From the IMG/VR virus record IMGVR_UViG_3300025897_002116, positions 1 through 64,000 of that record: a stretch of DNA of 64,000 nucleotides; one strand, written 5' to 3'. Positions 15,530 to 51,932 of this stretch are shown here, in pieces (the stretch's first letter is position 1; the number at the start of each line of letters is the position of its first letter). The notes beneath the pieces were generated by a model. That model saw only the letters and a program-made list of their open reading frames with translations, ran no database searches and was not told the DNA's origin. Both the position numbers and the translations under genes were made by a program. The stretch is from a virus.

Positions 15530-16153
15530 TTATATTAAATTAGGTTTCTGTATGGTAAGAAGTTTATTAAAAGTTTTTTCATCATACCCATAAAAAGGAA
15601 GTGGCGTAATATCAGAATCTACTCCAGGATATTGTTTAAAGTATCTACTATTCAATTGGTCCTCTTTTAATATTCCTTTATTTTTAATACCACCGTACAT
15701 TAAATCTAATCCCTCTGGTAATCTATTTTCTTCAATGAAGTTCAATAGCTTTTTAGCTCCTTCGGGCCAAATTATATAAGCTAAAATAGAAAAAGTATCT
15801 GGTACTAACCAAAATGTATCTAAATCTGTTCTATCTAATATTTCTTCAAATGAAAAATCAATAGGCTTCATTAATTCGGCATCATCTTCTATAATAACAT
15901 AAGGAGCATTACTTGCAATACATTCTTCATAAAGTCTCATATGCATTCTATTTGCACATACAAGAGATGGTATATGAATCTGCAATGAATCATATTTATT
16001 TCCTTCAATCATTCTCGTATCTTCTTTGGTTAATTTATACTCTAACCCATCAACCGCATCTACAAATTCAAAATCGAAATAAGGACTAAATGTATTAGTA
16101 AATTTAGTTCTACGGTCTTGTCTTCTTTTTAACGAAATAACTTTGATGTTCAT
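15530..16153 (-). CDS. Glycosyltransferase family 25-like
   Basis: VISLKRRQDRR, FVDAVDG, IIEDDA. Confidence 0.8.
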   Translation of the reverse strand: MNIKVISLKRRQDRRTKFTNTFSPYFDFEFVDAVDGLEYKLTKEDTRMIEGNKYDSLQIHIPSLVCANRMHMRLYEECIASNAPYVIIEDDAELMKPIDFSFEEILDRTDLDTFWLVPDTFSILAYIIWPEGAKKLLNFIEENRLPEGLDLMYGGIKNKGILKEDQLNSRYFKQYPGVDSDITPLPFYGYDEKTFNKLLTIQKPNLI

Positions 16154-16163
16154 ATAATATAAT

Positions 16164-16922
16164 TTAAAGCATGTATCTATCTGATTCTCTGTTTAGGCTT
16201 TCAAAAATATATTTATCGAATTTTGAAAAACCAAAGTAATGTTTGTACTTATTAGATTTATAATCTTTTGTAAAATTATACTTAGTGTTATTTTTTTCAC
16301 AGATATTTGTAAAATAGTACTGACAAATTATAGTTGATACAATTATTCCTTGTGTTATTAGTTTCTCTGTCGGTTCTATGTTTGTTAAGTAATATTTTCT
16401 AACTTTATAATATGAATCAATAAAAAGATTCTTTATATCTTCTGTTTTAAACCTCAGTATGCCGACATTGAATACAAGTTTTGGATCAAATGAAAAGTCT
16501 GAAAACACCTCATCCATTTTATATTTTTTTAAAATATTCAATATATCTCTGTGGCATTGTTGTAGTCTTTCTTTTTGTTCAAATACAATATCAGATGTTT
16601 CATCAACTGAAAGTTTAGTGTGTAAAATTATATCCCCATCAAATGTAATACTTCCTGCTGGTTCCTGAGTATGTACGTAAATCTTTAGGTCATCTGTAAT
16701 CTCAAATTCAACATTTTCTACATTAACAAAGACATCGTAATAACCTTTTAAATAATTTAAAGAGTAATCACAACCATAGAATTTTATTTTATGGCCAAGT
16801 GATTTTGCTCGTTCCATTGATATTTTATATAACTTTAGAACATGGTCTGTTTCATTATCTTTGGTATATCTACCACCTTTATAATCTCCAATATGTGTTG
16901 AAAAACTAAAAATTAATGTCAT
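16164..16922 (-). CDS. GT-A-like protein (DUF6734-like)
   Basis: ITFDGDIIL and FNVGIL; resembles 18723-19643 and 26416-27522. Confidence 0.55.
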   Translation of the reverse strand: MTLIFSFSTHIGDYKGGRYTKDNETDHVLKLYKISMERAKSLGHKIKFYGCDYSLNYLKGYYDVFVNVENVEFEITDDLKIYVHTQEPAGSITFDGDIILHTKLSVDETSDIVFEQKERLQQCHRDILNILKKYKMDEVFSDFSFDPKLVFNVGILRFKTEDIKNLFIDSYYKVRKYYLTNIEPTEKLITQGIIVSTIICQYYFTNICEKNNTKYNFTKDYKSNKYKHYFGFSKFDKYIFESLNRESDRYML

Positions 16923-17497
16923 ATTAAACTATAGTTTTTATTTTCAATAAGATCGGTTACCCATTTAGAAACTTTTTGATGTCCCTCGAAACTCCAATGA
17001 CCTCCATCTTCTTCTTCCTGCATATCTATTTTGTTAAGAGCCCACCAATTATTATCAGATGGAAAGTAATAAGAATCTATTTCATTAGAGTTAAGATACT
17101 TTACTAAACAATTAAAAGTGGTTTGGTAATATCTCTTGAGAGGTTCTTCATATTCTGCTCTCATTGCATAATAATTATCACTATATCTTTCACGAATTTT
17201 AATATATGAAGATTTCGGCCAATTAGAATAGAAATCTGATTCTTCCCTAACAAATGATGACCTTGCTGAATGTGTATCAAATATAAAAAGATAATCTCCT
17301 TTTTTGACTTTATTTATATTTGTTAGTATACTAAATAATATATTTTCATTTGAGTAACCATATTGAGCCAAATTCTTTTCCTTACAATTTAAATGTTCGG
17401 TTACAATTTGTGACATTATTTTATCTTTATCATTGGTTCTATCTCTACAGCCCCAACCGTAGACAAAAGAATCTCCAAAAAACCAAGCAGTTTTCAT
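16919..17497 (-). CDS. SGNH/GDSL hydrolase-like (acyl-esterase/transferase)
   Basis: FFGDSFVYG, G.SN and DGGHWSFEGH blocks. Confidence 0.75.
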   Translation of the reverse strand: MKTAWFFGDSFVYGWGCRDRTNDKDKIMSQIVTEHLNCKEKNLAQYGYSNENILFSILTNINKVKKGDYLFIFDTHSARSSFVREESDFYSNWPKSSYIKIRERYSDNYYAMRAEYEEPLKRYYQTTFNCLVKYLNSNEIDSYYFPSDNNWWALNKIDMQEEEDGGHWSFEGHQKVSKWVTDLIENKNYSLI

Positions 17498-17498
17498 A

Positions 17499-18080
17499 TT
17501 AAATTAAATTTATTTTTTCTAGTTTTTTTTTAATCCAAGAGGAATCATCAAATGTTTTATCAGGATATCCAATTACCTCCTGTATCGCAGTAACTACACT
17601 AGGCCACTTTTTTTGATAATCGTGTCCGCCAATAGATCCACCTGGTTTTACTTTAGGGTAATACAATGTTAAATCTTGCTTTACTGATTCATATAAGTGA
17701 TTGGCATCTATGTAAATAAAATCTATACTATTATCTTCAAACGTATCAACAACATTATAACTATAATCTGATATTAAGGATATGTTATCGAAGTATCGTG
17801 TATTTATTTCGAATTGTTGTTTAACAAGTTCCCAAGAATAATCATGGTTCTCGTTAAATATCTCGTGCCCCTCATGTGGCTCTACTGTATAAATCTTATC
17901 AAATATTTGAGATGATGCAAATAACATCGTGGATTCTCCCATATAGGAACCTATCTCAATCATAGTAGTGTTCTTGCCTTTTAGAGTTTTAAGTTCCGTT
18001 AGCATATCCACAAACCCAAAAAACATATTATTTGTATTACCTTTGAACCAATGTGGTGTATGTAATCTTTGAGTATTCAT
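17499..18080 (-). CDS. Class I SAM methyltransferase (Methyltransf_24-like)
   Basis: IEIGSYMGES, IDFIYIDANHLYESVKQD, GGHDY. Confidence 0.85.
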   Translation of the reverse strand: MNTQRLHTPHWFKGNTNNMFFGFVDMLTELKTLKGKNTTMIEIGSYMGESTMLFASSQIFDKIYTVEPHEGHEIFNENHDYSWELVKQQFEINTRYFDNISLISDYSYNVVDTFEDNSIDFIYIDANHLYESVKQDLTLYYPKVKPGGSIGGHDYQKKWPSVVTAIQEVIGYPDKTFDDSSWIKKKLEKINLI

Positions 18081-18697
18081 ATAATGGATTTTACTATTCT
18101 TTCTTTATAGAAGTTTTTAAAAATAATTTGTTTATCACTATAAACACACGCATATAAACATCTTGGTTTATCTGATTTGTTTGATTCTGATTGATGTGTA
18201 GTATCTCCATGTATTGCAACTATATCTCCGGCTTTTGGATATATCTTTGTATCTCTTAATTGTAGTGTTCCGTTCTCATCCGTAAAGTCATTCAGTATTA
18301 CAGACATATTTACTGTATTAGCTCCTTCGTTAAAATTACCTCCGATTGTATTATCAGTATGTTTTCCAAATCCAAAATTATCATTGGGTAATTTAACAAC
18401 AATCTGGTCATTATATAACCAAACATCTTTACTATTCAGAAGTTGTGTTGCAATATCAATCATAAGGTTTGATTTATAAAAATCCAAAAGATAGGGATCA
18501 TACATCCCCGCACATCCCAATCCATTCCAATGAATATCTCCTCCATATTTAGAGGGCTTTCCTACCTTATCACTTACCCATTTTCTTAATTTAATAGAAC
18601 GAGTTTGTAATTCATGAACTACATCTTCACTTATCATTTTTTGTAAATGTACCCATCCATGTTTTTTATAAAATTGTAAATTATTATGTATATTCAT
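18077..18697 (-). CDS. PhyH-like 2OG-Fe(II) dioxygenase
   Basis: HTD, DFTDENGTL, H.S..N.S..PR. Confidence 0.8.
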   Translation of the reverse strand: MNIHNNLQFYKKHGWVHLQKMISEDVVHELQTRSIKLRKWVSDKVGKPSKYGGDIHWNGLGCAGMYDPYLLDFYKSNLMIDIATQLLNSKDVWLYNDQIVVKLPNDNFGFGKHTDNTIGGNFNEGANTVNMSVILNDFTDENGTLQLRDTKIYPKAGDIVAIHGDTTHQSESNKSDKPRCLYACVYSDKQIIFKNFYKERIVKSII

Positions 18698-18722
18698 GAA
18701 TGCCTTCCTCCTGGTACATCAA

Positions 18723-19643
18723 TCATAATAAAACCCTTTGTTTAGTATCATTATAAATATTGTTTAAATAATACATGACCTCTTCACGGTATATTAAATC
18801 TTTTTTAATTGTAGATTTATCTAACCAAATATGCCAATATTTAAAGTTACCAATAGTATTTGAACTATTTGAATCAACCCACATAGGAGAATAACCACAA
18901 TCCGAATGAGATACATCAGCAGATAGCTGTTCTTCAGAAAACGCTAAATAAGTTTTATCCTCAATACACCCAACCTTTAAATTTAATTCTCTTGCACAAT
19001 AACCAAGTATTGATTGGTCCGATAATAACCACAACCATTCTGGTGTATTTTTGTATTTAGTTGAAACTACATTAAGATGATTTACATAGTAATTATTTTG
19101 TAATTCTTTATTATTCATAAATACAAAAGAAGTATTTGGCATTAACATTCTTTGATTAAAATTTGTAATAGGAACTTTATATTCTTTTATTAATTCATCT
19201 GTAATAAAGTATTTTCCTCTATGCAATTCCCAATGTGTATGAACTAAATCATAATTAAATACTGATTTTGGTAGTTCACTTTGAACTATGAAATCATTAT
19301 CTAAAAATAAAAATGGGCCCACTTCTTTTCCTATTGCTACTGATTTACCACTTGTCCACCATTTACCTGCATCTAAAGTATCTTCATTGTACTTATTTAA
19401 TGTATCTATATCTATTTCATCGAACAACTTAATCATGTTGTGTTTTTTATAAAAAGAATACCCAACATCATCAGTATACAATTTGATTGGAACTTTTAAA
19501 AACTTTCTGGCACTTGTTATTGCTGCTTTGTTGATTAGTAATTCGTAATCAACTATATCATATTCTTTACCTTTATTTTTATAAAAGAAAGGTTTTGTCC
19601 AATTAACAAATATTACTTTATAATTTACTTGTATGCCAGCCAT
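18723..19643 (-). CDS. GT-A-like protein (DUF6734-like)
   Basis: LYTDDVG, W..GK, PFLFLDNDF, PNTSF. Confidence 0.6.
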   Translation of the reverse strand: MAGIQVNYKVIFVNWTKPFFYKNKGKEYDIVDYELLINKAAITSARKFLKVPIKLYTDDVGYSFYKKHNMIKLFDEIDIDTLNKYNEDTLDAGKWWTSGKSVAIGKEVGPFLFLDNDFIVQSELPKSVFNYDLVHTHWELHRGKYFITDELIKEYKVPITNFNQRMLMPNTSFVFMNNKELQNNYYVNHLNVVSTKYKNTPEWLWLLSDQSILGYCARELNLKVGCIEDKTYLAFSEEQLSADVSHSDCGYSPMWVDSNSSNTIGNFKYWHIWLDKSTIKKDLIYREEVMYYLNNIYNDTKQRVLL

Positions 19644-19644
19644 T

Positions 19645-30551: not shown

Positions 30552-30938
30552 TTAAACTTGTCCTGGATCAGCTCCAGTATCACCTTGATCAGGATTCTCT
30601 CCTGCTAAAGCTTTACGAATAATTCTATCAAAGTATTCAATGTAAATAAAGAAACCAATTATTGTCTTGTCTTTCAAGTTTCTATCTCTTTCAACTCTCA
30701 TATCAAATTCACCTAATCCTTTTTCAAGTCTAGTTTCTAATTCAATAGCGATGTCGTTTTGTTGGGTTGGAGTTATAGAACCAAATTCTGTAGGAATAAA
30801 TTGAATTTTCACTCCTTTTTTCTGAGGGTCTTCATTTGTATCTACTTTTAGTAGAAAGGAATGTCCAGCAAATTTAATTTTGGCAGCTTCGGTTATAACT
30901 TCTTTTACTAATTTTTCTAAATGGGTTAATTGCTTCAT
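30552..30938 (-). CDS. Hypothetical protein (probable start MKQLTH)
   Basis: CTATTTAT at 30974-30981 upstream. Confidence 0.6.
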   Translation of the reverse strand: MKQLTHLEKLVKEVITEAAKIKFAGHSFLLKVDTNEDPQKKGVKIQFIPTEFGSITPTQQNDIAIELETRLEKGLGEFDMRVERDRNLKDKTIIGFFIYIEYFDRIIRKALAGENPDQGDTGADPGQV

Positions 30939-30981
30939 ATTATAAAGATAGGTAATTAAATTCAATTATACAAATAAATAG

Positions 30982-31155
30982 TTAACCAAATAGCATTTTC
31001 TTTTGTTTTGCATTATTTTCATTCAAGATTTGGTGATTTACTATCTTTCTATTACGACAATATTGGTCAATTGTCCATACTAAATCATCAGTATTAAATT
31101 CTACCTCTTCTTTTGTTCCGTTGAGGTACGTAAATTCTATTATATATTTTTTCAT
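30982..31155 (-). CDS. Small hypothetical protein (57 aa, not in ORF track)
   Basis: MKKYIIEFTYLNG...KMLFG fills the gap. Confidence 0.55.
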   Translation of the reverse strand: MKKYIIEFTYLNGTKEEVEFNTDDLVWTIDQYCRNRKIVNHQILNENNAKQKKMLFG

Positions 31156-31157
31156 AT

Positions 31158-31949
31158 CTAAAAAGTTATTCCTTTAATTTCTTGACCAATCGGTCTATGT
31201 GAATTATTTTTGTACCGGGTTGGCGGTGTTCCCCACTTATAAATATACGTCTCTGCTGCTGGACCTTCTGTTGCCTTAAACGCTGTACCTTCCTTACCGT
31301 TTTTTGTTGCTGAGGAGCCGAAGTGGTAAAAATGTGCTTGATGAGTTCTGATAAAAGTCATTCCTTTAAGGTCTAATTTTAAAAAGAAATCCCAATCACA
31401 TATAAATGGAGATTTATAGAGTGTATCGAATCCTCCAACGATCATGTAGTCTATCTTTTGCATAGCAAAAGGAAAAATTCCTCCATCATTAGTAGTCTTC
31501 ACCTCACTAATACTTTTTTCATACTTAAGAAATCCTTCGTAGTCAAAGGTACTGGGTGTACGACCTAAATCCTTTGCAGGAAAGTTAAAAATCCCAGGTC
31601 CTTCTGGTTCAATCTGATTAATAGTAAGAACTGTATTAGTGAGTTCTGTTTGCTCTATGACTGTATCCCAGCCTTTACTTAGAACATTGTCATCATTTAT
31701 AATACATATTTTTTTATTTTTTGCATTATATACTCCAAGGTTTAAAGCCATCTGCATTCCTTGATTATCAGCTAGTGGAAGCACATTAATGCTGTCTTTA
31801 TATCTGTTCAGTATATGTTTGCTCTCTTCTACAAATCCATCTACAATTACTATTATTTCATTTTTATTATCTTGACCTTCGAGAGCAGATCTTAAGCATA
31901 TATCCAAAAACTCAGGATTTCTATAGGTAGGTATTATTAAACTAATCAT
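31158..31949 (-). CDS. Glycosyltransferase family 2
   Basis: ISLIIPTY, IIVIVDG, INDD, GGFD..Y....DWDF. Confidence 0.9.
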   Translation of the reverse strand: MISLIIPTYRNPEFLDICLRSALEGQDNKNEIIVIVDGFVEESKHILNRYKDSINVLPLADNQGMQMALNLGVYNAKNKKICIINDDNVLSKGWDTVIEQTELTNTVLTINQIEPEGPGIFNFPAKDLGRTPSTFDYEGFLKYEKSISEVKTTNDGGIFPFAMQKIDYMIVGGFDTLYKSPFICDWDFFLKLDLKGMTFIRTHQAHFYHFGSSATKNGKEGTAFKATEGPAAETYIYKWGTPPTRYKNNSHRPIGQEIKGITF

Positions 31950-32949
31950 TTTTCCAAAATTTATAAATTCCTTTTTCTAATTCATATTTTTCCCATACAA
32001 ATCTATCTTGCATAGGTTGGTGATTTGCCCAAATCCACATTTTTTCTAAACCATCTCTCAATGTAGTTGTAAATTTAAAATCTAATAAATCAATAGATTT
32101 TTGAAAGGTTGGTATTGAATGTTTTACTTCATGTCTTGCTTCTAAGTACCTAAATTTATCCTCAGTTCCAATTACGGATTTAAGAGTATTAGCAGCTTCC
32201 TCTATTGATATTTCCTCAACACCTCCTAAGTTAATAATTTGTTTTGATGTTTGTTCCCTTACAGCAGCATTCCATAAAGGCTCTAATATATCATCTATAA
32301 AACTAAATGCCCTAGTTTGTGAACCATCTCCAAATATAGTCATTTGTTCCTGATTGATATACTGGTACATCCATATGCCTAGTACATTTCTATACTTGTC
32401 CCATATATTTTGTTTAATACCGTAAACATTATGGGGTCTTATTATACAGTAATCTAATCCGTGCTGTTCGTTTGCAATTTGGATATCCATTTCACAGGCA
32501 TATTTTGCTACACCGTATGGGTCAATAGGCTTAGGTACTTGTTTTTCGTCAAATATGCCACCATACCCATGACCGTATACAGCAAGTGTTGATGTAAATA
32601 CTAGCCGTTTAACGTCGTTTTTAATACATTCATTGACTATACGTGCTGTAACCTTTAAGTTGTTATCATAGTTAAAGCAGCGAATAAAAGGTGATAATCC
32701 TTCTGCTGCATAGGCAGCAAAGTGAAACACATAATCAAACTTATGAACTTCAAAGCAGTTCTCAATAGGGTGATCTACTAAGTTCATTTGCCAAAATGTA
32801 ACTTTAGGGTGTACATTAGTTTTATACCCCCCACTTAGATCATCAATACCTACTACTTCATATTCTGGTTTATTTTCTATAATCCAATCTGCTAGTCTGC
32901 TTCCTAGTAGTCCTGCTACTCCTGTAATTAGTATTGTTTTCTTACTCAT
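31942..32949 (-). CDS. NAD-dependent nucleotide-sugar epimerase/dehydratase
   Basis: ITGVAGLLG, PYGVAKY, FGDGSQTRAF. Confidence 0.92.
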   Translation of the reverse strand: MSKKTILITGVAGLLGSRLADWIIENKPEYEVVGIDDLSGGYKTNVHPKVTFWQMNLVDHPIENCFEVHKFDYVFHFAAYAAEGLSPFIRCFNYDNNLKVTARIVNECIKNDVKRLVFTSTLAVYGHGYGGIFDEKQVPKPIDPYGVAKYACEMDIQIANEQHGLDYCIIRPHNVYGIKQNIWDKYRNVLGIWMYQYINQEQMTIFGDGSQTRAFSFIDDILEPLWNAAVREQTSKQIINLGGVEEISIEEAANTLKSVIGTEDKFRYLEARHEVKHSIPTFQKSIDLLDFKFTTTLRDGLEKMWIWANHQPMQDRFVWEKYELEKGIYKFWKND

Positions 32950-34399: not shown

Positions 34400-34406
34400 A
34401 ACTTAC

Positions 34407-35192: not shown

Positions 35193-35812
35193 TTATTTAA
35201 ATTTAAACTCTTATGATAACCTCTTGTTGCCTTGCCTACATATGGATCAAATACACTCCCTACATCTATATATGTGTTTGTCTTATTTTCTTTCCATAAT
35301 TCGTGTATGAAGACATTTGTTGCCATTCCAGCTGAGAAGCAATACACTTTCTGTTTATCGTCAAATGTGCTTCTAACTAAGTTTAACAATGCCTCTCTCT
35401 GTAGCCAAACATTATTTTGAGGAATAGTTATAAATTCTGTTACAAATGAAAGTTTTTTTAGATCTTGATTACCAATATAGGTTACCCATTTATTTTTTAA
35501 TGTCTCAATAAGAGGTTGAAGATTTCCTTGCATACTAGCTTTATGAAATATATCAGCATCTATCCAGTCTTGATAGTATTTCTCAACGTCTGAGTCTAGA
35601 TTAAAAGTTTTGTAATCTTGTGCTCCTAATATGTAATCTTGTTTTACACTAACTATTTCTTTTAACGCATCTCCTAAGTCCGGGTAGTATATATTACCAT
35701 CACAGTTGGCTCCTTTAAGTTTTCTAATATTATACCATTCTCCATCTCCCCAACGTGTTAGGGCAAAAGGTTGGTTTGTTTCTAATTTAAAAAGTATATC
35801 TTTAAGTGTCAT
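35189..35812 (-). CDS. GT-D fold-like (DUF1792-like) protein
   Basis: LTRWGDGE and IDVGSVFD. Confidence 0.6.
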   Translation of the reverse strand: MTLKDILFKLETNQPFALTRWGDGEWYNIRKLKGANCDGNIYYPDLGDALKEIVSVKQDYILGAQDYKTFNLDSDVEKYYQDWIDADIFHKASMQGNLQPLIETLKNKWVTYIGNQDLKKLSFVTEFITIPQNNVWLQREALLNLVRSTFDDKQKVYCFSAGMATNVFIHELWKENKTNTYIDVGSVFDPYVGKATRGYHKSLNLNK

Positions 35813-36638
35813 TACTTTCGCTAATTGCTCTACCTTTGCTTTTCTCCCAGTCTTTTTCTGGTCTAACCTCTAGGTTTGTTTTCCAACCTCCTTTGATAGT
35901 ATGCAAGGGACTATCTAATTTATCAGCTAATGTAATTAATGCATTTACATCCTTAGGGAAACATGTTCCTCCGTATCCTAGTTTTCCATCTGGGCCAGGT
36001 ACATGTAGGTGACTATCTCCTATTCTCCCGTCTGAAGCGAAGCCGTATAATGCATCATTCCAGTTAGCACCTAGCTTGTCTGATAGTACTTTAAATTCAT
36101 TTACTATGGAAACCTTAGTAGCAAAAAAAGTATTATTCATATATTTAATTAGTTCGGCGGTAATATAATCAGTTTGAATTATATGTCTATTTCTAAATCT
36201 CTGCTCAAATAGCTGTGTTACTTTAGAACACAGATCTTTAGGTCCTCCGAAAATAATTCTTGCTTGAGTCAACATATCTAATTTAGCGGTTCTCTCAGTG
36301 AGAAACTCCGGACTAAATACTATATTAATTTTAGGGTACTTCTTTGAGAGAGCTAATGTAGTACCGGGTAGTACAGTGGATTTAAGTATATAGATAGGAC
36401 CTTCTGCAGCATCTTCAAATACTCTATCTACATAGGATGTGTCTTGAGATCCATCTTTAAACATTGGGGTTGGTACACAAACAAAAATAAAATCGCATTG
36501 ATCTATCTCCTCTTTTGTGTGAGTAGTTTTTAAAGGATCTAAATCATAGATTCTTAAATCAGTTGTTGGGGAGAAAGCAAATGCTTGACTCTCTCCTACA
36601 AACCCATTTCCTATCACTCCTACTTTAAATTTTTCCAT
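35802..36638 (-). CDS. ugd: UDP-glucose/GDP-mannose 6-dehydrogenase (lacks C-terminal UDP-binding domain)
   Basis: GNGFVG, VCVPTP, KSTVLPGT, SPEFL, GYGGTCFPKD. Confidence 0.85.
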   Translation of the reverse strand: MEKFKVGVIGNGFVGESQAFAFSPTTDLRIYDLDPLKTTHTKEEIDQCDFIFVCVPTPMFKDGSQDTSYVDRVFEDAAEGPIYILKSTVLPGTTLALSKKYPKINIVFSPEFLTERTAKLDMLTQARIIFGGPKDLCSKVTQLFEQRFRNRHIIQTDYITAELIKYMNNTFFATKVSIVNEFKVLSDKLGANWNDALYGFASDGRIGDSHLHVPGPDGKLGYGGTCFPKDVNALITLADKLDSPLHTIKGGWKTNLEVRPEKDWEKSKGRAISESNDT

Positions 36639-37302
36639 ATAGTAATTCTGCTATTTTGAATTGCCATTTATAATCTATATCAAATGCTTGATGCTCTTCT
36701 ATAGTATATAAGATAAGGTTTTCTTTTGAATAATCCACCATAAAATGATTATTTTTTATAATATTTAATTTCGATGCATATAAACAATGAGCTGCTTCGT
36801 AAGTGGGGTTTATAACTTTTGTGTTCATTATAGTTTCTCCAGCCGGCCAGGAGTTAATCATGTTACCGGATGCATCCCAATAGTACTGTTTTTTTTCTAT
36901 AACCGCAAATAAATTTTCTTCATCTTGAGTTAAAAATTTAGAAACAAAATCATCTATAGTTTTTATAGTCAAAAAAGGAATACATCCTGAGATTAGTACA
37001 ACATATTTGTAGTCAAGTTTATCATGCCATTCATATATTGTTTTAAGATCCTTATCTTCATTAGCAGATTCTTGACTCCTACTGTAAATATGTATACCTT
37101 TTTTAGAAGCTATGTTTTTTAACTCCTCCTCATATACCGAGGCAATGATTTGTTTTTTAGGTATAATAGAAGAAGTAATTAACTTGTCTAATACTAGATC
37201 AAATAAGGTAGTGCCTGCAAAAGGTTCAAGCATTTTTTGAGGAACCCTCTGACTGTTTAGTCTTGCTTGAACAATAAATGCTACATCTTTAATGTCTTTC
37301 AC
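36625..37302 (-). CDS. neuA: CMP-nonulosonic acid synthetase (NeuA-like cytidylyltransferase)
   Basis: QARLNSQRVPQKML and FDIDYKWQF. Confidence 0.8.
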   Translation of the reverse strand: MKDIKDVAFIVQARLNSQRVPQKMLEPFAGTTLFDLVLDKLITSSIIPKKQIIASVYEEELKNIASKKGIHIYSRSQESANEDKDLKTIYEWHDKLDYKYVVLISGCIPFLTIKTIDDFVSKFLTQDEENLFAVIEKKQYYWDASGNMINSWPAGETIMNTKVINPTYEAAHCLYASKLNIIKNNHFMVDYSKENLILYTIEEHQAFDIDYKWQFKIAELLYGKI

Positions 37303-38156
37303 CCTCTTAGTTTCTTTTTAATTTCTTCTTCAGCTTCTGTAACAACTATCTTTCCATCACCATAGGCTTCCTCTAGTTCCCTTATTCCGGAAACTAATTT
37401 AAAGAGGCCATGTGGGGTGACAGAACAGCTATGATCAGATCCCCAGCTCGTTCTATCTAAAGTTACATGTCTTTCTATAATAGTGGCCCCTAGGTATATA
37501 GCAGCAACTGTTGTGCCTAAAAGTAACTCATGTCCTGAGTATCCTATTTCACAGTCGGTGTATTTTTCAGCTAATGTATTTATAGCAGATAGATTAAGAT
37601 CTCTAACCGGTGTAGGGTATGAAGAATTACAATGAAGTATTCCTATTTGATGACCGTTTTTAAATAGGTCTTTTGCTTTTCTTAAAACATTTACTGCCGA
37701 GTCGATCTCCTCCTCTGTGGACATTCCTGTGGAAAGAATAACTTTCATGTTACTTTTCATACAAGATATAAGTATCTCATAATTAGTTAACATTGCAGAA
37801 GGTATTTTAATAAAAGGCAGGTTATATTGTTTTAAAAATTCTACCGAATCGTAATCCCAAGGAGAAGCAGACCAAGTAATTCCGGACTGTTTACAGTATG
37901 AATCTATAAAATCATATTCTTTTTTACCGAACTCTATCTTGTTTTTATATTCAAGATAGGGCATTTTTCCCCATGGAGTATCTCTTATAATATTTTTTTG
38001 ATGTTCAGGAATACTTTTATCAGGGTTTCTTTTTTGGAATTTGACTGCATTACAGCCTGCTGCTGCTGCTATATCTATAAGTTTTTTTGCAACAGAAAGA
38101 TCGCCGTTGTGATTAATACCTATTTCAGCTATGATATAGGTGTCAAATTTCTTCAA
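37299..38156 (-). CDS. neuB: Nonulosonic acid(-9-P) synthase, NeuB family
   Basis: IAEIGINHNGD, AVKFQKR, ILSTGMS, LHCNSSYP, GYSGHE, IERHVTLD. Confidence 0.92.
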   Translation of the reverse strand: MKKFDTYIIAEIGINHNGDLSVAKKLIDIAAAAGCNAVKFQKRNPDKSIPEHQKNIIRDTPWGKMPYLEYKNKIEFGKKEYDFIDSYCKQSGITWSASPWDYDSVEFLKQYNLPFIKIPSAMLTNYEILISCMKSNMKVILSTGMSTEEEIDSAVNVLRKAKDLFKNGHQIGILHCNSSYPTPVRDLNLSAINTLAEKYTDCEIGYSGHELLLGTTVAAIYLGATIIERHVTLDRTSWGSDHSCSVTPHGLFKLVSGIRELEEAYGDGKIVVTEAEEEIKKKLRG

Positions 38157-38445
38157 TTCTTCTAGATTTATCGCAAATTAACAAGTCGTATGGAGGTTTA
38201 TCCCCTACTCTTAATTGATGGTATTTGCAACTCCATTCATCAAGTTGTTTTTTTGTTAAATCATAATGGTTTATACCAGATTTTGATCCTCTTGCTGTCC
38301 AGTATGTAATGTTATGACCTTCATCATACAGTTTATTAATCTTATCTATATTAACCTGTATAGGGCTGGCTAAAGCATACGCTCGAAAGTCTCCTCCGTA
38401 AACGTAATCACAAATTGTTTCATCAATATCTACGTAGATGTTCAT
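38143..38445 (-). CDS. Small HAD-family phosphatase
   Basis: VDIDETI, WTARG, KPPYDLLICDK. Confidence 0.8.
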   Translation of the reverse strand: MNIYVDIDETICDYVYGGDFRAYALASPIQVNIDKINKLYDEGHNITYWTARGSKSGINHYDLTKKQLDEWSCKYHQLRVGDKPPYDLLICDKSRRIEEI

Positions 38446-39062
38446 AATGTACTGTAGTATTTATTTTGTTTTTCTTGTCTTATTATATCTTTTGGATGAT
38501 ATAGAGCCCACTCTTCTTCCATAGGGAGCATACCATGTAACTTAAAACCCTTTAATACTTCATGAACCTTATTAACCCATTTAATATCTAAATGGTTTCT
38601 ATATATTCTCATCTGCCAATCAGCCCAGTTTACCCATCCTTTTTCATTTACATTCCAGCCCCATTTTTTAATATGATCTTCTGTTAATCCTTGTACAGTA
38701 TTTACTCGAGGCACTCTTAGCATATCAACTTCAGAATTTGCTTCTAATAATGCTGGTAGGTTGTCTATTAAGTGTTTGTTAGGTATCTCATCTGCATCTA
38801 TCTGAAATATATATTCTCCAGAGCAGTAACTTGTAAGTTGATTTTTCCAATCTGCAAAATGATTATCAAAATCATCATTAAACACTTTAACCTCTACATA
38901 GTCTAAACCACTTAGGTAAGTGAAAACACTACTATCCCCATTTTTAGAATCATAAAGAACCACTATTTCATCTTCTTCTCTTTTGTTAAAGATTAAAAAA
39001 CTAATAAGCTTCTGTACTTCTACTAACTCATTACAAACAGTTACAGCGTAACTTATTTTCAT
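38442..39062 (-). CDS. Glycosyltransferase family 2
   Basis: ISYAVTVCNE, IFQIDADE, VHEVL. Confidence 0.85.
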   Translation of the reverse strand: MKISYAVTVCNELVEVQKLISFLIFNKREEDEIVVLYDSKNGDSSVFTYLSGLDYVEVKVFNDDFDNHFADWKNQLTSYCSGEYIFQIDADEIPNKHLIDNLPALLEANSEVDMLRVPRVNTVQGLTEDHIKKWGWNVNEKGWVNWADWQMRIYRNHLDIKWVNKVHEVLKGFKLHGMLPMEEEWALYHPKDIIRQEKQNKYYSTL

Positions 39063-39508
39063 GCTTCAAAAAATCCGATTGCATCTAGAGCATCCATAAA
39101 ATCTTTTTGTCCAAATTGCTTAGAATTTTTCATATCCATTCTATATGTTTGATCAGAAGGAAATTGCTTTATTTTTCTTTCTTCTTCTGTAATTTCTATG
39201 GCTTTAACAGAAGACCATTTCCAATTTGTTTTATTTGTTCCATCTATAAACACCATTCCTTTAGCTGGTAATGTAACCGTTGATGGAAGCCAGGTTTGCT
39301 TATTTGAGTCTTCAAACATTAAATCTTTGTATAACTCAGGGGATGTTTCAATTGCATCAGTGATAACTTTGCTTCCTTTCACTAACTCGGTACTAGACGT
39401 AAAACCACATCCCAGGCATAGCCATGTTGTTAGTTTTTCACTAAGTACTTGTTCATAACATGCGTTACCGTTGCATCGGCCGCATTCTACTAATTGGTCT
39501 TTATCCAT
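39059..39508 (-). CDS. Zn-ribbon hypothetical protein
   Basis: CGRC ... CLGCG. Confidence 0.65.
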   Translation of the reverse strand: MDKDQLVECGRCNGNACYEQVLSEKLTTWLCLGCGFTSSTELVKGSKVITDAIETSPELYKDLMFEDSNKQTWLPSTVTLPAKGMVFIDGTNKTNWKWSSVKAIEITEEERKIKQFPSDQTYRMDMKNSKQFGQKDFMDALDAIGFFEA

Positions 39509-40790
39509 TTGTTTGTAATTTTGGTAAATTTAATTTAGGTAAATTTAATTCGATTTGTTTGGGAAAATCAGGAAGGGTTCTTTCTAGAATTATTCCTAGT
39601 TCCTCAGTCATTTTATCTAAACTAAAATTAGTCCTGTTTTTAAATCCTAATTTTTTCGCGTTAACTGTGAAGCTCTTATAATTCTTATAGACATTTTTTA
39701 TCGCATTAGCAGCTTGCCCATCATCTGGGGTGAACCATTTTGAAGTCTCAATTATAGTGCCTTGTGATAAAGCTGATTTATGTACATCGGTTAGTGTTCC
39801 TCCTACTAGTATGGCAAGATCTTTATCTAAAAAATCTAATTGACCAGACCAACCAGATGATATGATAGGTTTATTACTAAGGCTAAACTCTAATAAAGGT
39901 CTTCCAAATCCTTCTCCTTTTGTAAAACTCACCATTGCCTTTACTTTAGGGTGGTTGTATAGCTCATTAACTTCTTCATCGGTAATATCGCCGTGAAAAA
40001 GATATATGTTAGGTAAGGATCCTTTAACAGTAGATTTTATACTTTCAATTTTATCTAATACCTCTTCCCTGTCAAGTAAGGATGTAGTAGCGTTATTAGT
40101 TTTTAAAATTAATGCAGGAGGATTAGGTTTATTTTTAAATACCTCTAAGAAAGACTTGACTGTGTATCCAACATTTTTCCTATCATGTCCGAAATCTCCT
40201 TGGAGCCAATGTCCCACAAATAGAAAACAAAAGGACTCTTTAATCTGATTTAAGGCTATAGTAACTTCCGAATTAGGTCTAGGTGTGGTAGGAAAATATT
40301 TTGTAATATCAGCTCCTTCGAAAATTACTTCAATAGGAGTTTCTAATTTTACCTTACCTACTGTCTTATTTGTATTTTGATCTACTGCATCAAATGAAGT
40401 TTCAAGAAAAATATCTTTACTGTGTTGAGATGATGTTAGTATTAGATCCATACTATTGCAACCTTTAATCCAGCTAGCATCTGCAAGATTTGTTTCTATA
40501 CCTGCAGTTAATCCTATATTAAACTTCCCTGTCTTTTTGAACTCATTTGGGACAGTAATTTGAATCCATACATCAGGTTGAGATTGCAAGTTATGTACTA
40601 TTAGATTTTGAAGTTCTACTTCTTGATGATCAGCTAAATAACCGAATCGAGTATTTCCCCATCTCTGGCTTAATACTTTAACTTCGTATTTCTCTAATGA
40701 TAATAAAGCTTTAATGAAATCTCTAGATCTTGCTCCATATCCTGAGTATGTGTCAATTGGGCAAGAAACTACTACTGTTGTTTTATTCAT
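39501..40790 (-). CDS. Glycosyltransferase family 4-like
   Basis: SGYG..SR, DRKN, KGEGFGRPLLE. Confidence 0.85.
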   Translation of the reverse strand: MNKTTVVVSCPIDTYSGYGARSRDFIKALLSLEKYEVKVLSQRWGNTRFGYLADHQEVELQNLIVHNLQSQPDVWIQITVPNEFKKTGKFNIGLTAGIETNLADASWIKGCNSMDLILTSSQHSKDIFLETSFDAVDQNTNKTVGKVKLETPIEVIFEGADITKYFPTTPRPNSEVTIALNQIKESFCFLFVGHWLQGDFGHDRKNVGYTVKSFLEVFKNKPNPPALILKTNNATTSLLDREEVLDKIESIKSTVKGSLPNIYLFHGDITDEEVNELYNHPKVKAMVSFTKGEGFGRPLLEFSLSNKPIISSGWSGQLDFLDKDLAILVGGTLTDVHKSALSQGTIIETSKWFTPDDGQAANAIKNVYKNYKSFTVNAKKLGFKNRTNFSLDKMTEELGIILERTLPDFPKQIELNLPKLNLPKLQTNG

Positions 40791-40791
40791 C

Positions 40792-42237
40792 TTAATAACC
40801 AGTTAATTTATGCTTAATGTACTTTGAAGGTCTTTTTTTAGTCTTAATTAAATCAAATCTAGATCTAGGTTTAAATTTATCAAAAGCTTCATCTAATGTT
40901 TCAACTATATTTTTACACATAGCAGATGCAGACATTTGTGACTCATCTGATGTCACCCACTCTCTGCCTTTAAGACCTCTTTTTTCTCTATCTTCAGAAG
41001 AAAGGTTGTAAACCTTTTCTATAGCCTTAGCTACATCTTCAGGTTGACATCTATCATCGAAAATATAAGGGGTGGTTGGGGAGCCTGTAAGTGAAATATT
41101 AGATGGGAAAACCGGTTCTACCCACTCCCCACATTCTTTTACAGTACCTCTATGGTTAGAAGGAAAATCAGCGTCAAAATCTATCCACTTACCGTCTTTT
41201 TCAAATCTCATTTGATCTTGCATACCTCCGGTTACATTACCGATAATCATCTTACCAGCCATCATAGATTCAGTTAAACTTAATCCCCAACCTTCGTTAG
41301 AAGAAATTAAAACCGTAACATCTGAGATATTATACATGAGGTTCATTTGACTAGGATTAATACGGGCCTGTGAAAAATACACATTAACGTAACTTGGATC
41401 GGTTAATGCCTCTTTTACAGCTCTTAGATCAGTTCCATTATTGTCACTAACATGAGTATGCATTATAAGAGCACATTTTTTTGCTTTTTCTTCTCCAATT
41501 AAGTCACAGAAAAGTCTATACGCAAAAATTACATCAGCAGGTTTTTTTCTTTGAATATTTCTAGAATTGAAAAATACTATAAATTCAATATCGTCTCTAC
41601 CAAGAGTATTCTTTTTAAACTCTAAAAGATTTTCATATAGAGAATGCTTAGAATCTATAGGGAAAAAATCATTTTCGTTAATTCCATGAGGAACATACTT
41701 TAGTATCTTACTATCGGCTTTTTCACCTAGGACTAATCTATTAATATTGTTAGTTTGTTTTGAAATTGCCATAAGTACATCAACTGAATCATAATAGTTG
41801 ACATTATACCCTGGGGCTGGGTAGTCATCCCATATATTGAGCCAGAAGATTGGTATCTTGGACCTAATTTCCCTTTCTATTTGGAATAACCATACCCAAT
41901 ATCTTGGATCGGTAAAGATAAAAATAGCATCAGGTTTCTCTCTTTCAATTAACGCTCTCATTAACTCAGCATCTCCGTAACCATTGTTCGGCAGTACCTG
42001 TACAAGTGAATCTGTGATTCCTATTATTTTGTTTACCTCCTCTGATAGATCGTAGATTTTACCAATCTCAGGATGCTTTACAGCGGCTCCTACATTGAAC
42101 CAATTAAAGTGCTGTGCTGTACCGACTGTGAACTCTCTTGCCATTGTGGCAATTCCGGAGTTCATTCTGATATCATCACATAAAAGTAAGATCTTTTTCC
42201 GATCCTTCTTTTCGATATAACGAAACTGTTCTTTCAT
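40792..42237 (-). CDS. Glycosyltransferase family 4-like
   Basis: VPHG, RNIQRK, NEGWGLSLTES. Confidence 0.88.
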   Translation of the reverse strand: MKEQFRYIEKKDRKKILLLCDDIRMNSGIATMAREFTVGTAQHFNWFNVGAAVKHPEIGKIYDLSEEVNKIIGITDSLVQVLPNNGYGDAELMRALIEREKPDAIFIFTDPRYWVWLFQIEREIRSKIPIFWLNIWDDYPAPGYNVNYYDSVDVLMAISKQTNNINRLVLGEKADSKILKYVPHGINENDFFPIDSKHSLYENLLEFKKNTLGRDDIEFIVFFNSRNIQRKKPADVIFAYRLFCDLIGEEKAKKCALIMHTHVSDNNGTDLRAVKEALTDPSYVNVYFSQARINPSQMNLMYNISDVTVLISSNEGWGLSLTESMMAGKMIIGNVTGGMQDQMRFEKDGKWIDFDADFPSNHRGTVKECGEWVEPVFPSNISLTGSPTTPYIFDDRCQPEDVAKAIEKVYNLSSEDREKRGLKGREWVTSDESQMSASAMCKNIVETLDEAFDKFKPRSRFDLIKTKKRPSKYIKHKLTGY

Positions 42238-48490: not shown

Positions 48491-48504
48491 ATCTAAATAT
48501 AGTA

Positions 48505-49121: not shown

Positions 49122-49178
49122 AACTTTCTATTTTTATATTTACTTAAAGATAGTATAATTTAACCAGAAAACCAACTA

Positions 49179-49679
49179 TTACAAGTTTTTATTATGAACT
49201 AAAATACCATTAGCAAAAAAATTACTATTGTCTTCTACATGAAAAATATAAGTCTGTACTGGTTCTCTCTCCTGTTCTTCTAAGTCTACAAGTTTTACAT
49301 TCTCTAGTTCCAAATCAATTAAACTATCTCCTACTTTAAGTTGATTAATTTCGGAGGTAAAAGTGTATCTTGCTGATGTTAGGTTTGGTTTATAAGATGC
49401 TAGGTGTTTACCCTCAACATAGTATGGATGATCAAATGTAGAAATTATTTCAATATCATTTTCTAATATCAATTTGATTAAGTCATTATGTATAGAGGTA
49501 GAAACTTCTATTACTTCTTTAACTTCTATTTCTTGAGTTTTTTCGTTATAAGAGAGAACAAAATCACCTATTCTAATGTCCTCTATGTACTTAGTATAGT
49601 AATCCTCCATGGTAACCTCTGTACCTGCTACAAAGCAAAGTTTATTGGACATTTGTTTACTATTTAAAAATTTTTCCAT
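49179..49679 (-). CDS. Stand-alone Hint (intein-like) domain protein
   Basis: CFVAGTEV, STFDHP, NFFANGILVHN-KNL. Confidence 0.9.
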   Translation of the reverse strand: MEKFLNSKQMSNKLCFVAGTEVTMEDYYTKYIEDIRIGDFVLSYNEKTQEIEVKEVIEVSTSIHNDLIKLILENDIEIISTFDHPYYVEGKHLASYKPNLTSARYTFTSEINQLKVGDSLIDLELENVKLVDLEEQEREPVQTYIFHVEDNSNFFANGILVHNKNL

Positions 49680-49761
49680 TTATATCTATTAAATTTTTGA
49701 AATATTTACACTTGCTTTAAGGAAATAAAACAGTCTGCACTATACTTTTCATATGCTACTT

Positions 49762-50904
49762 TCAAATTAAACTTTTTGCTTTCTTTTTTAAATCTTTATT
49801 TTTTACTTGTATTACTATTTGGTATTTAGTTCCTTCTTCTACTTTATCATATGTCATATGCTGCCAAGGTTTATAAATATATACATCTCCTTGTTTAATC
49901 TTACAAACAGCGCATCCTCCTTCTTTACTTCGTTCCCAACTTTCTTCTGCAATAAGGTTACCTCCTTTGAAATTATCATTTAAGTATATATCAATACTCA
50001 TACATAGTTGTTCAGGGGCAGATAAAGGCATTCCTTTAGTAGTCATAACATGTCTATCGTATTTATCTCCTTCTTTGTATCTGAATAGACTGATATCTAA
50101 ATCATTAAAATTAACATTATTAAACTCTTTAAATATTTTCTCACTAATGATACTATTTAATCTTTGATTAGATTTAATTTTTGGTACATATCCAAATCCT
50201 CTAGAATGCACTACTCCTTTTACTAAAGCTGAAGTTTTATGATCTTTTAAATCGTTAATATTATCTTCTAGAAGTTCATTACAAAGATCTTGAGGTATTA
50301 TATTAGTTAATTTACGAAAAAGAGGAGTGCAAACAAACTCTTTACCTACATAATAAGTCCAACATACTTCTTTATAGTCTCTCATAAATTTAGGATAAGA
50401 TTTGAGAGAGTCTTTCTTGAAATGATATATCTTTTTGTTTAAAAGTTTATCTTTTTTTAATCTAGCATATTCATATATCGATAAACAACAGTTTTGGTTA
50501 GCTATAGATTTAGCTGCTTCTTCAAACTTACCGTAACTTCTATCTTTATATGTATCCATAAAGATACCATCATACTTAATGCCTTTCTCTGCTAATGTAG
50601 GTATTACTTCAGTCCAGTCACCAAATAAGATAGTAACATTTGACTTACCTATAGCCCATTCTAACGCTTTTTCATAAATCTGAGGGTTTATTTCTATACA
50701 GGTGTAGTGGTTTGCAAGTTCTGACATTTTATTTGCCGAGAATCCCATTCCGAATCCAACATCAAGAACGTTGCCTCCATTTTCACAAACTACGTTTGAA
50801 TACATATCCATCAGAGATTTGGATATAGAATCCATTACAATGGAACGATTATTATTTTTTAGGTAAATTGTTTTACCTGTAAATACTACCTCTTTATCTC
50901 TCAT
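49762..50904 (-). CDS. Fusion: GAMT/Rmt2-like SAM methyltransferase plus 2OG-Fe(II) oxygenase-like domain
   Basis: GGNVLDVGFGMG, CIEINP, DGIFMDTY; C-terminal RYKEGD.Y.RH, YLNDNFKGG, H...V..G.KY. Confidence 0.75.
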   Translation of the reverse strand: MRDKEVVFTGKTIYLKNNNRSIVMDSISKSLMDMYSNVVCENGGNVLDVGFGMGFSANKMSELANHYTCIEINPQIYEKALEWAIGKSNVTILFGDWTEVIPTLAEKGIKYDGIFMDTYKDRSYGKFEEAAKSIANQNCCLSIYEYARLKKDKLLNKKIYHFKKDSLKSYPKFMRDYKEVCWTYYVGKEFVCTPLFRKLTNIIPQDLCNELLEDNINDLKDHKTSALVKGVVHSRGFGYVPKIKSNQRLNSIISEKIFKEFNNVNFNDLDISLFRYKEGDKYDRHVMTTKGMPLSAPEQLCMSIDIYLNDNFKGGNLIAEESWERSKEGGCAVCKIKQGDVYIYKPWQHMTYDKVEEGTKYQIVIQVKNKDLKKKAKSLI

Positions 50905-51425
50905 ATTAAACTTGTATCTAATTTTAATCGCGTTTTTGATATTCCTATTTGGAATATTTCAATATTATGTGGGAGTTCAATTACGAATTTTATAATATTA
51001 GAAACTTCTGAGAATTTTAGTTTTTGATTTTTTACTAACTTAGCACTCTCTAATGTATTAGGGTATACATTTATAATACGAACTTCCTTTTCTATATCTC
51101 GTAATTCAAATGTTTTTTGTTCTAAATGTTTTTTATCCTCAATATACTTTTGATTAGGGCCTCCAAATATTAATGCAGATGTTAGTATATTAATTATAGT
51201 TTTAGGTTTATATTTCCACTCTTTATAAACAAGTTCAAATAAATCAGATTGTAATTTATCTTTATATTCATTATTAATAAATACATCATACTCGTTTATC
51301 ACATTTGAAAAGTAATGTGCATACGAATCAGTAGTACTTAGGGAATCAGCTTTATGACCATTTGAAGAGAGATGATCTTTTATATTCTTTCCCAATCCAT
51401 AATTTCCTGTAACTAATATTTTCAT
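50901..51425 (-). CDS. Short-chain dehydrogenase/reductase-like protein
   Basis: ILVTG.YGLG, DVFINN, IINI, Y...K. Confidence 0.7.
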   Translation of the reverse strand: MKILVTGNYGLGKNIKDHLSSNGHKADSLSTTDSYAHYFSNVINEYDVFINNEYKDKLQSDLFELVYKEWKYKPKTIINILTSALIFGGPNQKYIEDKKHLEQKTFELRDIEKEVRIINVYPNTLESAKLVKNQKLKFSEVSNIIKFVIELPHNIEIFQIGISKTRLKLDTSLI

Positions 51426-51437
51426 ACCATAAAGGTA

Positions 51438-51932
51438 TTACAGTAGTGGGTTTTTTAAATCTAAATGTTCGTAAAAGTAGAACCCGATTAAACTCCATCG
51501 ATTTCCCTTAGTAACTTCTAAGACTTCGTGTTCTAATGAATGTTTAAAAGTGTAAAGGGAACCTGTATTTTTTGGTAGTATCTGGTATTTCGGTTGGTGT
51601 ATAACAAAATCACCTCCTTCGTAATCTTCATTTAAAGAAGCTCCTATATTATAAATCTGATTATCATAATAGATATCTCTATGTCTACCGAACTTGTCAC
51701 CAACGGAATAGTTAAACATATGAATAGCATCTAAACTTTTAACAACTTTAATTCCAGTTGTTTCAGTAAAGTAAGAATCCATTCTATCAAAAATCCACCG
51801 TATATATTGATTCCACCCAATAGAATAAAAATTATAACTAATAGGACGTGGGTATTCATTCCTCTCTGTCTTTTGTAACTTAGCCGAAAGTTTTATAATA
51901 GCATCACATTCTTGTTTATTAAATGAAATCAT
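51438..51932 (-). CDS. 2OG-Fe(II) oxygenase (prolyl-hydroxylase-like)
   Basis: Y..GD.F.RHRD, LNEDYEGGDF, HEV.EVTKG.RWSL. Confidence 0.88.
   Translation of the reverse strand: MISFNKQECDAIIKLSAKLQKTERNEYPRPISYNFYSIGWNQYIRWIFDRMDSYFTETTGIKVVKSLDAIHMFNYSVGDKFGRHRDIYYDNQIYNIGASLNEDYEGGDFVIHQPKYQILPKNTGSLYTFKHSLEHEVLEVTKGNRWSLIGFYFYEHLDLKNPLL

Follow-up and report, generated by a model that had tools for sequence, protein, structure and literature searches.

Shared terminal tags sort cargo in cells and in protein compartments, peroxisomal signals, encapsulin peptides and degrons being examples. The MuA tag RRKKAI is recognised by E. coli ClpXP, and three C-terminal residues can suffice as a ClpXP signal (PMC5143411). 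At the chemical level, YgiC and YjfC are named as peptide-spermidine ligases acting on the terminal carboxylate of a peptide (PMC12568646). Arrays of tailoring genes, for their part, were linked by Iyer et al. (2010) to peptide or secondary-metabolite modification and to hydroxylation and sulfation of collagen-like proteins (PMC2938197). Here we analyse a window of 64,000 bases at the start of a viral contig of 72,952 bp (IMG/VR record IMGVR_UViG_3300025897_002116), in which nine accessory genes, in two distant blocks, encode proteins ending in two hydrophobic residues. Comparison with related viral contigs shows that this is a robust, widespread C-terminal tag on phage accessory enzymes, so far undescribed; the literature searched, supplementary files (where alignments might lie) being outside its scope, held no description of a shared tail on phage accessory genes. 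We conclude with high confidence that selection at the protein level maintains the tail as a short linear motif.

A tail shared by unrelated genes

Translation of all minus-strand open reading frames (ORFs) of at least 50 amino acids (aa), 103 of which were kept, returned the nine C-terminal tails exactly as listed in the original prediction. The genes, named below by their first coordinate, are the following:

15530-16153, minus strand: tagged GT25 glycosyltransferase, end KPNLI (Pfam Glyco_transf_25, E 2.9e-15)
16164-16922, minus strand: tagged protein without known family, end DRYML (no Pfam or PHROG family)
16919-17497, minus strand: tagged SGNH/GDSL-like protein, end NYSLI (weak Pfam GDSL matches)
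17499-18080, minus strand: tagged Methyltransf_24 (CmcI-like) methyltransferase, end KINLI (Pfam, E 3.3e-19)
18077-18697, minus strand: tagged PhyH-type 2-oxoglutarate (2OG) dioxygenase, end VKSII (Pfam PhyH, E 6.9e-10)
18723-19643, minus strand: tagged protein with a weak DUF6734 match, end QRVLL (Pfam, E 4.3e-4, below cut-off)
49762-50904, minus strand: tagged class I methyltransferase-like protein, end AKSLI (Pfam methyltransferase matches below cut-off)
50901-51425, minus strand: tagged Rossmann-like or short-chain dehydrogenase/reductase (SDR)-like protein, end DTSLI (SDR from homologue names only)
51438-51935, minus strand: tagged 2OG-Fe(II) oxygenase, end KNPLL (Pfam 2OG-FeII_Oxy_3, E 5.6e-9)

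The fold labels first given to these proteins stood in part. Pfam confirms GT25 for 15530, Methyltransf_24 for 17499, PhyH for 18077 and 2OG-FeII_Oxy_3 for 51438. The DUF6734 (18723) and methyltransferase (49762) labels fall below its cut-off, 16164 has no family, and the SDR label of 50901 comes from the names of homologues. The SGNH label of 16919 comes from its weak Pfam matches and from a GDSL protein ending KKMI in the related contig G001 (25% identity); a search of viral contigs found no relatives of 16919. As had been stated, none of the 14 genes at 31158-42237 has two aliphatic end residues (their ends are ITF, KND, DKI, LLK, NRW, LNK, NDT, GKI, LRG, EEI, STL, FEA, TNG and TGY), and genes 26416 and 46615 end in IELD and NLST. 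The last two had been called paralogues of tagged genes, which BLASTP did not show, although 46615 and 15530 share phrog_2835. The fourteen-gene stretch (31158-42237, minus strand) owes the name 'glycan cluster' to an earlier reader.

A count of terminal dipeptides over the whole contig, which the original prediction had called for, gave hardly any enrichment: 10 of 119 ORFs had [LIMV][LIMV] ends, where about 7.3 would be expected. What was enriched was the clustering of the tagged genes and the specific form of their ends. One run of six tagged genes, the longest, and one of three account for the nine that stand in runs of at least 3 (permutation p = 5e-6; 200,000 shuffles, 109 ORFs). In addition, six genes of the contig end in [SNT][LI][LI] against 0.64 expected. 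The signal in the window is clustering plus a specific tail form, not a contig-wide count.

A search with the 772-aa Hint protein encoded next to the second block (52084-54402) found 26 viral loci. Pooled with the window contig after removal of identical proteins, these yielded 187 tagged genes among 537, against 9% predicted from amino-acid composition. The pooled denominators include some false ORFs, since ORF calling was mechanical: the minimum length was 60 aa (50 aa for the window), and an ORF was dropped if a longer one covered more than 40% of it. A run of at least four tagged genes was present in 16 of the 26 loci, the longest comprising 12 genes, and a single genome carries up to about 20 tagged enzymes. 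In the related contig G001 (40 kb), which carries a 76%-identical copy of 50901, 23 genes had two hydrophobic end residues against 5.1 expected, with runs of 9 and 5. The consensus of the tail is K-[KSNT]-[LI]-[IL]-COOH, with these frequencies by position:

Position 0: I or L, 169 of 187 tails
Position -1: L or I, 153 of 187
Position -2: K, S, N or T, 129 of 187
Position -3: K, 93 of 187, the best-kept polar position

The basic-x-[S/N]-L-I form first proposed was therefore right in having a basic residue followed by two aliphatics and too narrow at -2, where S or N is not required; it is the K at -3 that is best kept. Either K or R occupied -3 or -2 in 127 of the 187 tails, and acidic residues were depleted, the final four positions containing D or E in 21 of 187 tagged proteins against 111 of 350 untagged ones.

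These compositions bear on whether the tail might target the enzymes to a compartment or surface, either by loading them into the capsid, much as cargo peptides do in encapsulins, or by weak membrane association. As with encapsulin targeting peptides, a C-terminal tail is common to unrelated enzymes, and over their last ten residues tagged proteins are slightly more basic than untagged ones (net charge +0.97 vs +0.67). Two hydrophobic residues are, however, too few for a membrane anchor, and the arrays are surrounded by genes for replication and chaperones rather than adjoining a capsid gene. Moreover, whether computed over the final 11, 14 or 18 residues, the hydrophobic moment does not exceed that of untagged C-termini, and an amphipathic membrane-targeting helix was rejected on that ground. 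We regard targeting of this kind as very unlikely.

The two blocks of the window had been proposed to form one pool, and G001 bears this out. There a single array holds homologues of 16919, 50901 and 51438, the 16919 homologue standing directly after that of 50901 and in the same array as the 51438 paralogues; because their homologues share this array, the two window blocks belong together. The neighbours 51438 and 50901 are conserved as such in L007, L015, L017, L018, L020 and L029. The proposal of a protein-level signal that connects the two operons of the window is supported. Common ancestry of the tagged genes was rejected, since paralogy is limited to some of the 2OG oxygenases and to a few pairs, and the Pfam families differ. 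Some of them below cut-off, the families of the arrays include GT25, CmcI-like and class I methyltransferases, PhyH, several P4H-type 2OG oxygenases, two SET-domain proteins, a radical SAM enzyme, GSCFA and GDSL esterase-like proteins, GNAT and APS kinase.

Two components of the arrays deserve mention in their own right. SET domains are unusual in phages, and the tagged array of G001 encodes two adjacent ones, 38% identical to each other (L005 8993-9915, plus strand). APS kinase and a small nucleotidyltransferase-like protein, whose His-x-Gly-His motif was read by eye, are adjacent in G001, G002 and G003; the coordinates of the pair are 188914-189279 and 30752-31198 in G004 and 3895-4697 in G001 (L005). 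This pair suggests a putative phage-encoded sulfate activation for a sulfation step.

Protein-level selection and lineage distribution

An explanation that has to be weighed first is that the tails are a nucleotide-level by-product, without protein function, of translational coupling, AT bias or a cassette junction. ATGA overlaps occur in 52 and TAATG overlaps in 20 of the 187 tagged genes, and the window contains 7 matches to the 12-nt pattern ARTTTAATWTRA where 1.0 is expected, an enrichment. Against this, a gap of more than 10 nt or the lack of a next gene was found for 58 of the 187, and tails are kept without a downstream gene and after linkers of very different lengths. In the window a true ATGA stop/start overlap is confined to three of the nine genes (16919, 18077 and 50901), as had been noted, and ten other genes of the contig whose stop lies inside an ATGA string are untagged (AVL, KIK, PRL, SIK, DKI, LLK, LNK, STL, FEA and IFS), so the string does not force the tail. 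The overlap was therefore rejected as its cause. A fixed DNA motif or cassette junction was likewise rejected, because DNA similarity among the gene ends of the window is limited to three codons and codon use is ordinary: Leu and Ile codons in the tails follow internal usage in the same genes, TTA at -1 making up 56% in non-overlapping genes vs 54% internally. C/G-containing tail codons are found as predicted in 51438 (CTA CTG) and 16164 (ATG CTT), and phages of equal AT content have no tails. The by-product explanation is largely refuted by these observations, and we find it scarcely tenable.

Conservation in orthologues pointed the same way. In the 50901 family, two hydrophobic end residues were present in 114 of 117 full-length cluster representatives (49-100% identity; three shorter sequences left out), with L, I, V and M interchanging and the last residue I or L in all 117. 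All 15 aligned relatives of the 51438 oxygenase end [LIVSA][LIV] after a variable stretch of 8-13 residues. Both homologues of 16164 aligned to the C-terminus have two hydrophobic end residues, and the sole homologue of 18723 (L062) ends TTLL. In the CmcI-like methyltransferase family the core closes at Ser-Trp-Ile-Lys and the tail follows after a linker of none to about 30 residues, in one case rich in proline and threonine; 51 of the best 120 database homologues were tagged, mostly the closest ones. Ordinary codons, tails without a downstream gene, variable linkers and conserved family ends indicate selection on the protein and not on the DNA, and the original judgement that AT bias explains the tails poorly is upheld by the same evidence.

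The enzymes themselves are not peculiar to these phages, as many further phage contigs, marine and freshwater, carry relatives of the methyltransferase together with relatives of the PhyH dioxygenase. In 30 loci without an ATP-grasp/Hint gene (so called after the two parts of the 772-aa protein described below), 24 of 436 genes had two hydrophobic ends, a single one of them with a basic residue before the pair, vs 115 of 537 genes with a basic residue before the pair in the Hint loci and the window contig; no arrays of tagged genes were found in those 30 loci. The alignment of PhyH homologues reached the C-terminus in 17 cases; only two of these, both from contigs with the ATP-grasp/Hint gene, were tagged, and the other 15 were not. 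Methyltransferase homologues in other phages were untagged, as were the oxygenases of cyanophage S-SSM7 (ends WLI, GAS, PTL and KDK) and the sole homologue of 15530 from another phage lineage (L066, end IRMY). Because homologues elsewhere are untagged, these widespread enzyme genes bear the tail only within one Flavobacterium-phage-like lineage, and the tail appears when they enter it. The closest isolate, Flavobacterium phage vB_FspM_immuto, whose family A DNA polymerase (PolA) is 68% identical to that of the contig, has neither the ATP-grasp/Hint gene nor a small heat-shock protein (sHSP) gene nor tagged arrays, and it also lacks these enzymes.

This distribution bears on the possibility that the tail is a C-terminal degron. 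A host AAA+ protease or unfoldase of the ClpXP, Lon or FtsH type would then recognise it and give the enzymes fast turnover or remodelling on a common schedule. A C-terminus that is basic and then small or hydrophobic resembles the MuA tag RRKKAI (PMC5143411), and the depletion of acidic residues reported above agrees with such a signal. A phage ClpP was found in none of five contigs, so that a degron would need a host reader. Such a reader would leave the confinement of the tail to phages with an ATP-grasp/Hint gene and an sHSP unexplained (immuto has no tails, though it has no such enzymes either), and no reason is known why 10-20 enzymes should be unstable. We consider a degron unlikely.

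Candidate readers of the tail

Because the shared motif ends in the free carboxylate, follows a linker of variable length and is specific to one lineage, we infer that a single common partner reads the tail on all these enzymes. The features of the window that bear on its identity are these:

52084-54402, minus strand: 772-aa ATP-grasp-like/Hint protein, candidate reader (Pfam Hint families, alignments, AlphaFold model and fold searches)
49179-49679, minus strand: stand-alone Hint protein of 166 aa that closes the three-gene tagged block (Pfam PT-HINT, Intein_splicing)
56778-57188, minus strand: phage sHSP (HSP20/alpha-crystallin), second candidate reader (PF00011, E 1.7e-13)
54762-56405, minus strand: phage GroEL (phrog_5725, E 2.3e-163), 67% identical to that of immuto
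56407-56709, minus strand: phage GroES, 61% identical to that of immuto and syntenic with it

The 772-aa protein consists of an ATP-grasp-like part (residues 1-293), a degenerate Hint domain (about 296-470) that lacks the first Cys and has the His-Asn end, and two complete Hint domains that start with Cys-Phe, end with His-Asn and are separated or followed by only one or two residues. The first 470 residues or so are conserved; relatives carry one to three Hint domains or another C-terminal piece. Membership of the Hint superfamily was clear from Pfam, with matches above cut-off to PT-HINT (E 1.3e-14), Intein_splicing (1.1e-10) and Hint (2.3e-10). An AlphaFold (AF2) model of residues 1-472, made from a 17-sequence alignment (mean pLDDT 79.6), was compared with known structures by Foldseek and VIA fold searches. 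Residues 296-472 matched 2lwy, a Clostridium thermocellum bacterial intein-like (BIL) domain, with Z 19.1 and a root-mean-square deviation (rmsd) of 1.7 A over 138 of 138 residues, and 6tmm, the BIL2 domain of the Tetrahymena BUBL1 locus, with Z 18.5; Foldseek gave E 3e-9 for the Hint fold. The stand-alone protein 49179-49679, with an N-extein of 14 and a C-extein of 3 residues, is a paralogue of the last Hint domain (46% identity to residues 611-772). In relatives a third Hint domain lies inside the main gene in place of a stand-alone gene of this type.

The label 'ATP-grasp', which the original prediction had attached to this protein, found middling support from the fold and none from Pfam. 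Residues 1-293 matched 3k1t best (Z 8.1, 228 aligned residues, rmsd 5.0 A, a range that the tool flags as a possible 'common arrangement'), followed by 5oeu (Z 7.8), YgiC 7uka (Z 7.5), GspS 2io7 (Z 6.5) and others lower. These matches form a consistent set, that of ligases of the glutathione synthetase, glutathionylspermidine synthetase and YgiC type. D9, F10, E22 and N24 are invariant in the 17-sequence alignment and in a 16-sequence one. We take a Glu-x-Asn after an Asp-Phe ... Gly strand pair to be the metal-binding motif of ATP-grasp enzymes, and the four residues, lying at the extreme N-terminus, would fit that strand pair in permuted order.

A profile search with this domain collected 318 representative proteins. 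Among the best 150, the domain starts at residue 1 except in a few fragments, and most proteins have 460-935 residues. Of ten profile relatives examined by Pfam, nine show only Hint domains or nothing, and the tenth matches a tRNA synthetase family. This last match (P0242, 303 aa, profile positions 56-189, mainly class II tRNA-synt_2 by Pfam) may be due to chance or to a chimeric protein. In 50,697 phage records, tblastn gave no match to the ATP-grasp-like domain and found Hint pieces only, in 8 records.

To relate the tail to its candidate readers, hydrophobic-pair ends were counted by contig:

Window contig: ATP-grasp/Hint gene present; 13 ends, 9.5 expected
G001: present; 23 ends, 5.1 expected
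G002: present; 29 ends, 18.9 expected
G003: present; 37 ends, 18.5 expected
G004: present; 27 ends, 16.8 expected
G005: present; 37 ends, 20.4 expected
G007: present; 17 ends, 7.9 expected
G009: present; 24 ends, 11.7 expected
G010: absent; 3 ends, 4.4 expected
Phage immuto: absent; 19 ends, 17.1 expected

All eight contigs with the ATP-grasp/Hint gene thus had an excess of hydrophobic ends, and neither G010 nor immuto had one. The proposed link to the Hint gene also held as an association at the level of single loci, at least four of six neighbours being tagged in 17 of the 26. In the complete genome G004 tagged genes are at background save for a single array around the ATP-grasp/Hint gene; in the complete genome G005 they are scattered and do not form one array. 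Among the families present in G002, G003 and G004 and missing from immuto, the untagged lineage-specific ones are the Hint protein and the sulfate-activation pair.

On this basis we rank the ATP-grasp/Hint protein, acting at the free C-terminus, as the first candidate for the reader of the tail, because the arrays flank its gene and its structural analogues act on peptide C-terminal carboxylates; the identification is possible and should be taken as tentative. RimK and tubulin tyrosine ligase modify protein C-termini. The tail would then be a handle recognised by one partner carried by the lineage: the ligase-like domain would bind the basic, two-hydrophobic, carboxylate end of each enzyme, and the bound enzymes would be held together as one tailoring complex or have their C-termini modified. 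A more specific version, in which the ligase domain would activate the K-x-hydrophobic-hydrophobic-COOH end and the Hint modules would supply thioester and cleavage chemistry, so that the enzymes would be covalently joined with one another, with a carrier or with an amine cap, is in our view rather improbable. If true, a C-terminus-directed machine of an ATP-grasp and three Hint domains would amount to a phage-encoded, ubiquitin-free assembly or marking of a set of tailoring enzymes.

Several points weigh against the ATP-grasp/Hint protein as reader. Five loci (L023, L024 and L026-L028) have its gene and few tagged neighbours, and the first block of the window lies 33 kb from it. Co-occurrence is confounded by shared ancestry, the comparison covering 10 contigs, most of them incomplete, and the sHSP gene co-occurs with the tail in nearly the same way. 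Finally, no ATP-grasp Pfam model matches any of 16 members (E up to 10), nor is there a PHROG match, so that ATP-grasp membership is putative, and the assignment of residues 1-293 in the model remains weak at Z 6-8 and an rmsd of about 5 A. The five loci form a sub-branch whose ATP-grasp/Hint proteins are 36-38% identical.

The sHSP brings in a different reading, in which the tail would recruit this protein, with GroEL and GroES where present, to keep foreign enzymes soluble and folded. The HSP20 family is present in seven of the eight tag-bearing contigs, the exception being G002 (49% complete), and absent from G010 and immuto. Its gene lies 2.4-24 kb from the ATP-grasp/Hint gene in six of seven contigs, the two being near opposite contig ends in G003. 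In the window the sHSP, GroES and GroEL genes are directly upstream of the Hint gene, and 56778-57188 sits between PolA and GroES, where immuto has no gene. Alpha-crystallin domains have a groove that accommodates short hydrophobic motifs from C-termini, and the phage sHSPs themselves end with the canonical L/I-x-I/V motif. However, the ligand of that groove has its hydrophobic residues spaced by one, whereas those of the tail are adjacent and preceded at -2 by K, S, N or T in most cases (frequencies above), and sHSP genes are common in untagged marine phages. GroEL is missing from the related large contigs G002, G003 and G005, which speaks against chaperone docking and led us to reject GroEL itself as reader. 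We judge docking to chaperones to be quite unlikely. A PDZ domain encoded by the phage is also an unlikely reader: a search of phage genes with a single PDZ model, PDZ_2 (PF13180), found it in none of five contigs (G000, G001, G003, G004 and G005), while the control was detected in 14 of 14 genomes.

To return to the ATP-grasp/Hint protein, its candidacy provides a functional hypothesis for an unannotated family of 318 ATP-grasp-like/Hint proteins. Whichever protein it is, the identity of the reader would show how these phages organise a large tailoring pathway that comprises dioxygenases, SET and other methyltransferases, a radical SAM enzyme, a sulfate-activation module and glycosyl- and acyl-transferases. 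The tag could also serve as a minimal portable handle for protein recruitment.

Genomic setting and comparison with known systems

The contig has a GC content of 29-36%, and 113 of its 119 simple ORFs are on the minus strand. It shares the gene order PolA, GroES, GroEL with phage immuto; no nucleotide-level match to isolated phages was obtained among the 50,697 phage records, and no tRNA genes were found in the window. A radical SAM protein of 519 aa adjoins a GTP cyclohydrolase (60045-62543, minus strand), and immuto has a full 7-deazaguanine DNA modification pathway (FolE, QueC/D/E/F, DpdA). Because of this gene pair and of the pathway in immuto, the phage's own DNA may be modified as that of immuto is.

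Among known sorting signals, the tail can be compared with encapsulin cargo-loading peptides, which are likewise short C-terminal peptides on unrelated enzymes, follow a flexible linker and are encoded near the gene of their reader; the motif of the tail consists of four residues ending in the carboxylate. No HK97-fold shell gene was seen beside the arrays among the annotated flanking genes, some flanking ORFs being unannotated; those annotated encode the ATP-grasp/Hint protein, GroEL/ES, sHSP, PolA and GNAT. Signals for ClpX of the ssrA and MuA RRKKAI types are also very short, basic and then aliphatic, and placed at the extreme C-terminus with a free carboxylate, and the tails take the MuA-type form, with K or R at -3 or -2 in 127, L or I at -1 in 153 and I or L at 0 in 169 of the 187. 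Known degrons, however, mark single regulators or stalled products, not arrays of 10-20 enzymes in one lineage. The I-x-I/V anchoring motif of sHSPs, which the phage sHSPs possess, is likewise a short hydrophobic C-terminal motif after basic residues, but it is spaced by one residue, whereas the hydrophobic residues of the tail are adjacent at the very end.

In gene content the arrays resemble those of the Syn9 type, whose description includes 2OG dioxygenases, PhyH, a CmcI-like methyltransferase, radical SAM, an acetyltransferase, PAPS synthesis and ATP-grasp ligases; they differ from them in that the portion of the article consulted mentions no shared tail (PMC2938197) and in that the one cyanophage array examined, that of S-SSM7, is without one. 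As for the candidate reader, its first 293 residues align with ligases of the glutathione synthetase, GspS and YgiC group at Z 6-8.1; unlike these, the phage domain has no Pfam match and is fused to three Hint domains. We know of no protein substrate for that group. Its Hint part is closest to BIL domains, including those of Tetrahymena BUBL, with which it shares the tandem arrangement, almost no C-extein and, in two of three domains, Cys and His-Asn ends. The BIL domains of Tetrahymena can reportedly conjugate an upstream domain to lysines. What sets the phage protein apart from them, and is new here, is the fusion to an ATP-grasp-like domain in a neighbourhood of tagged enzymes.

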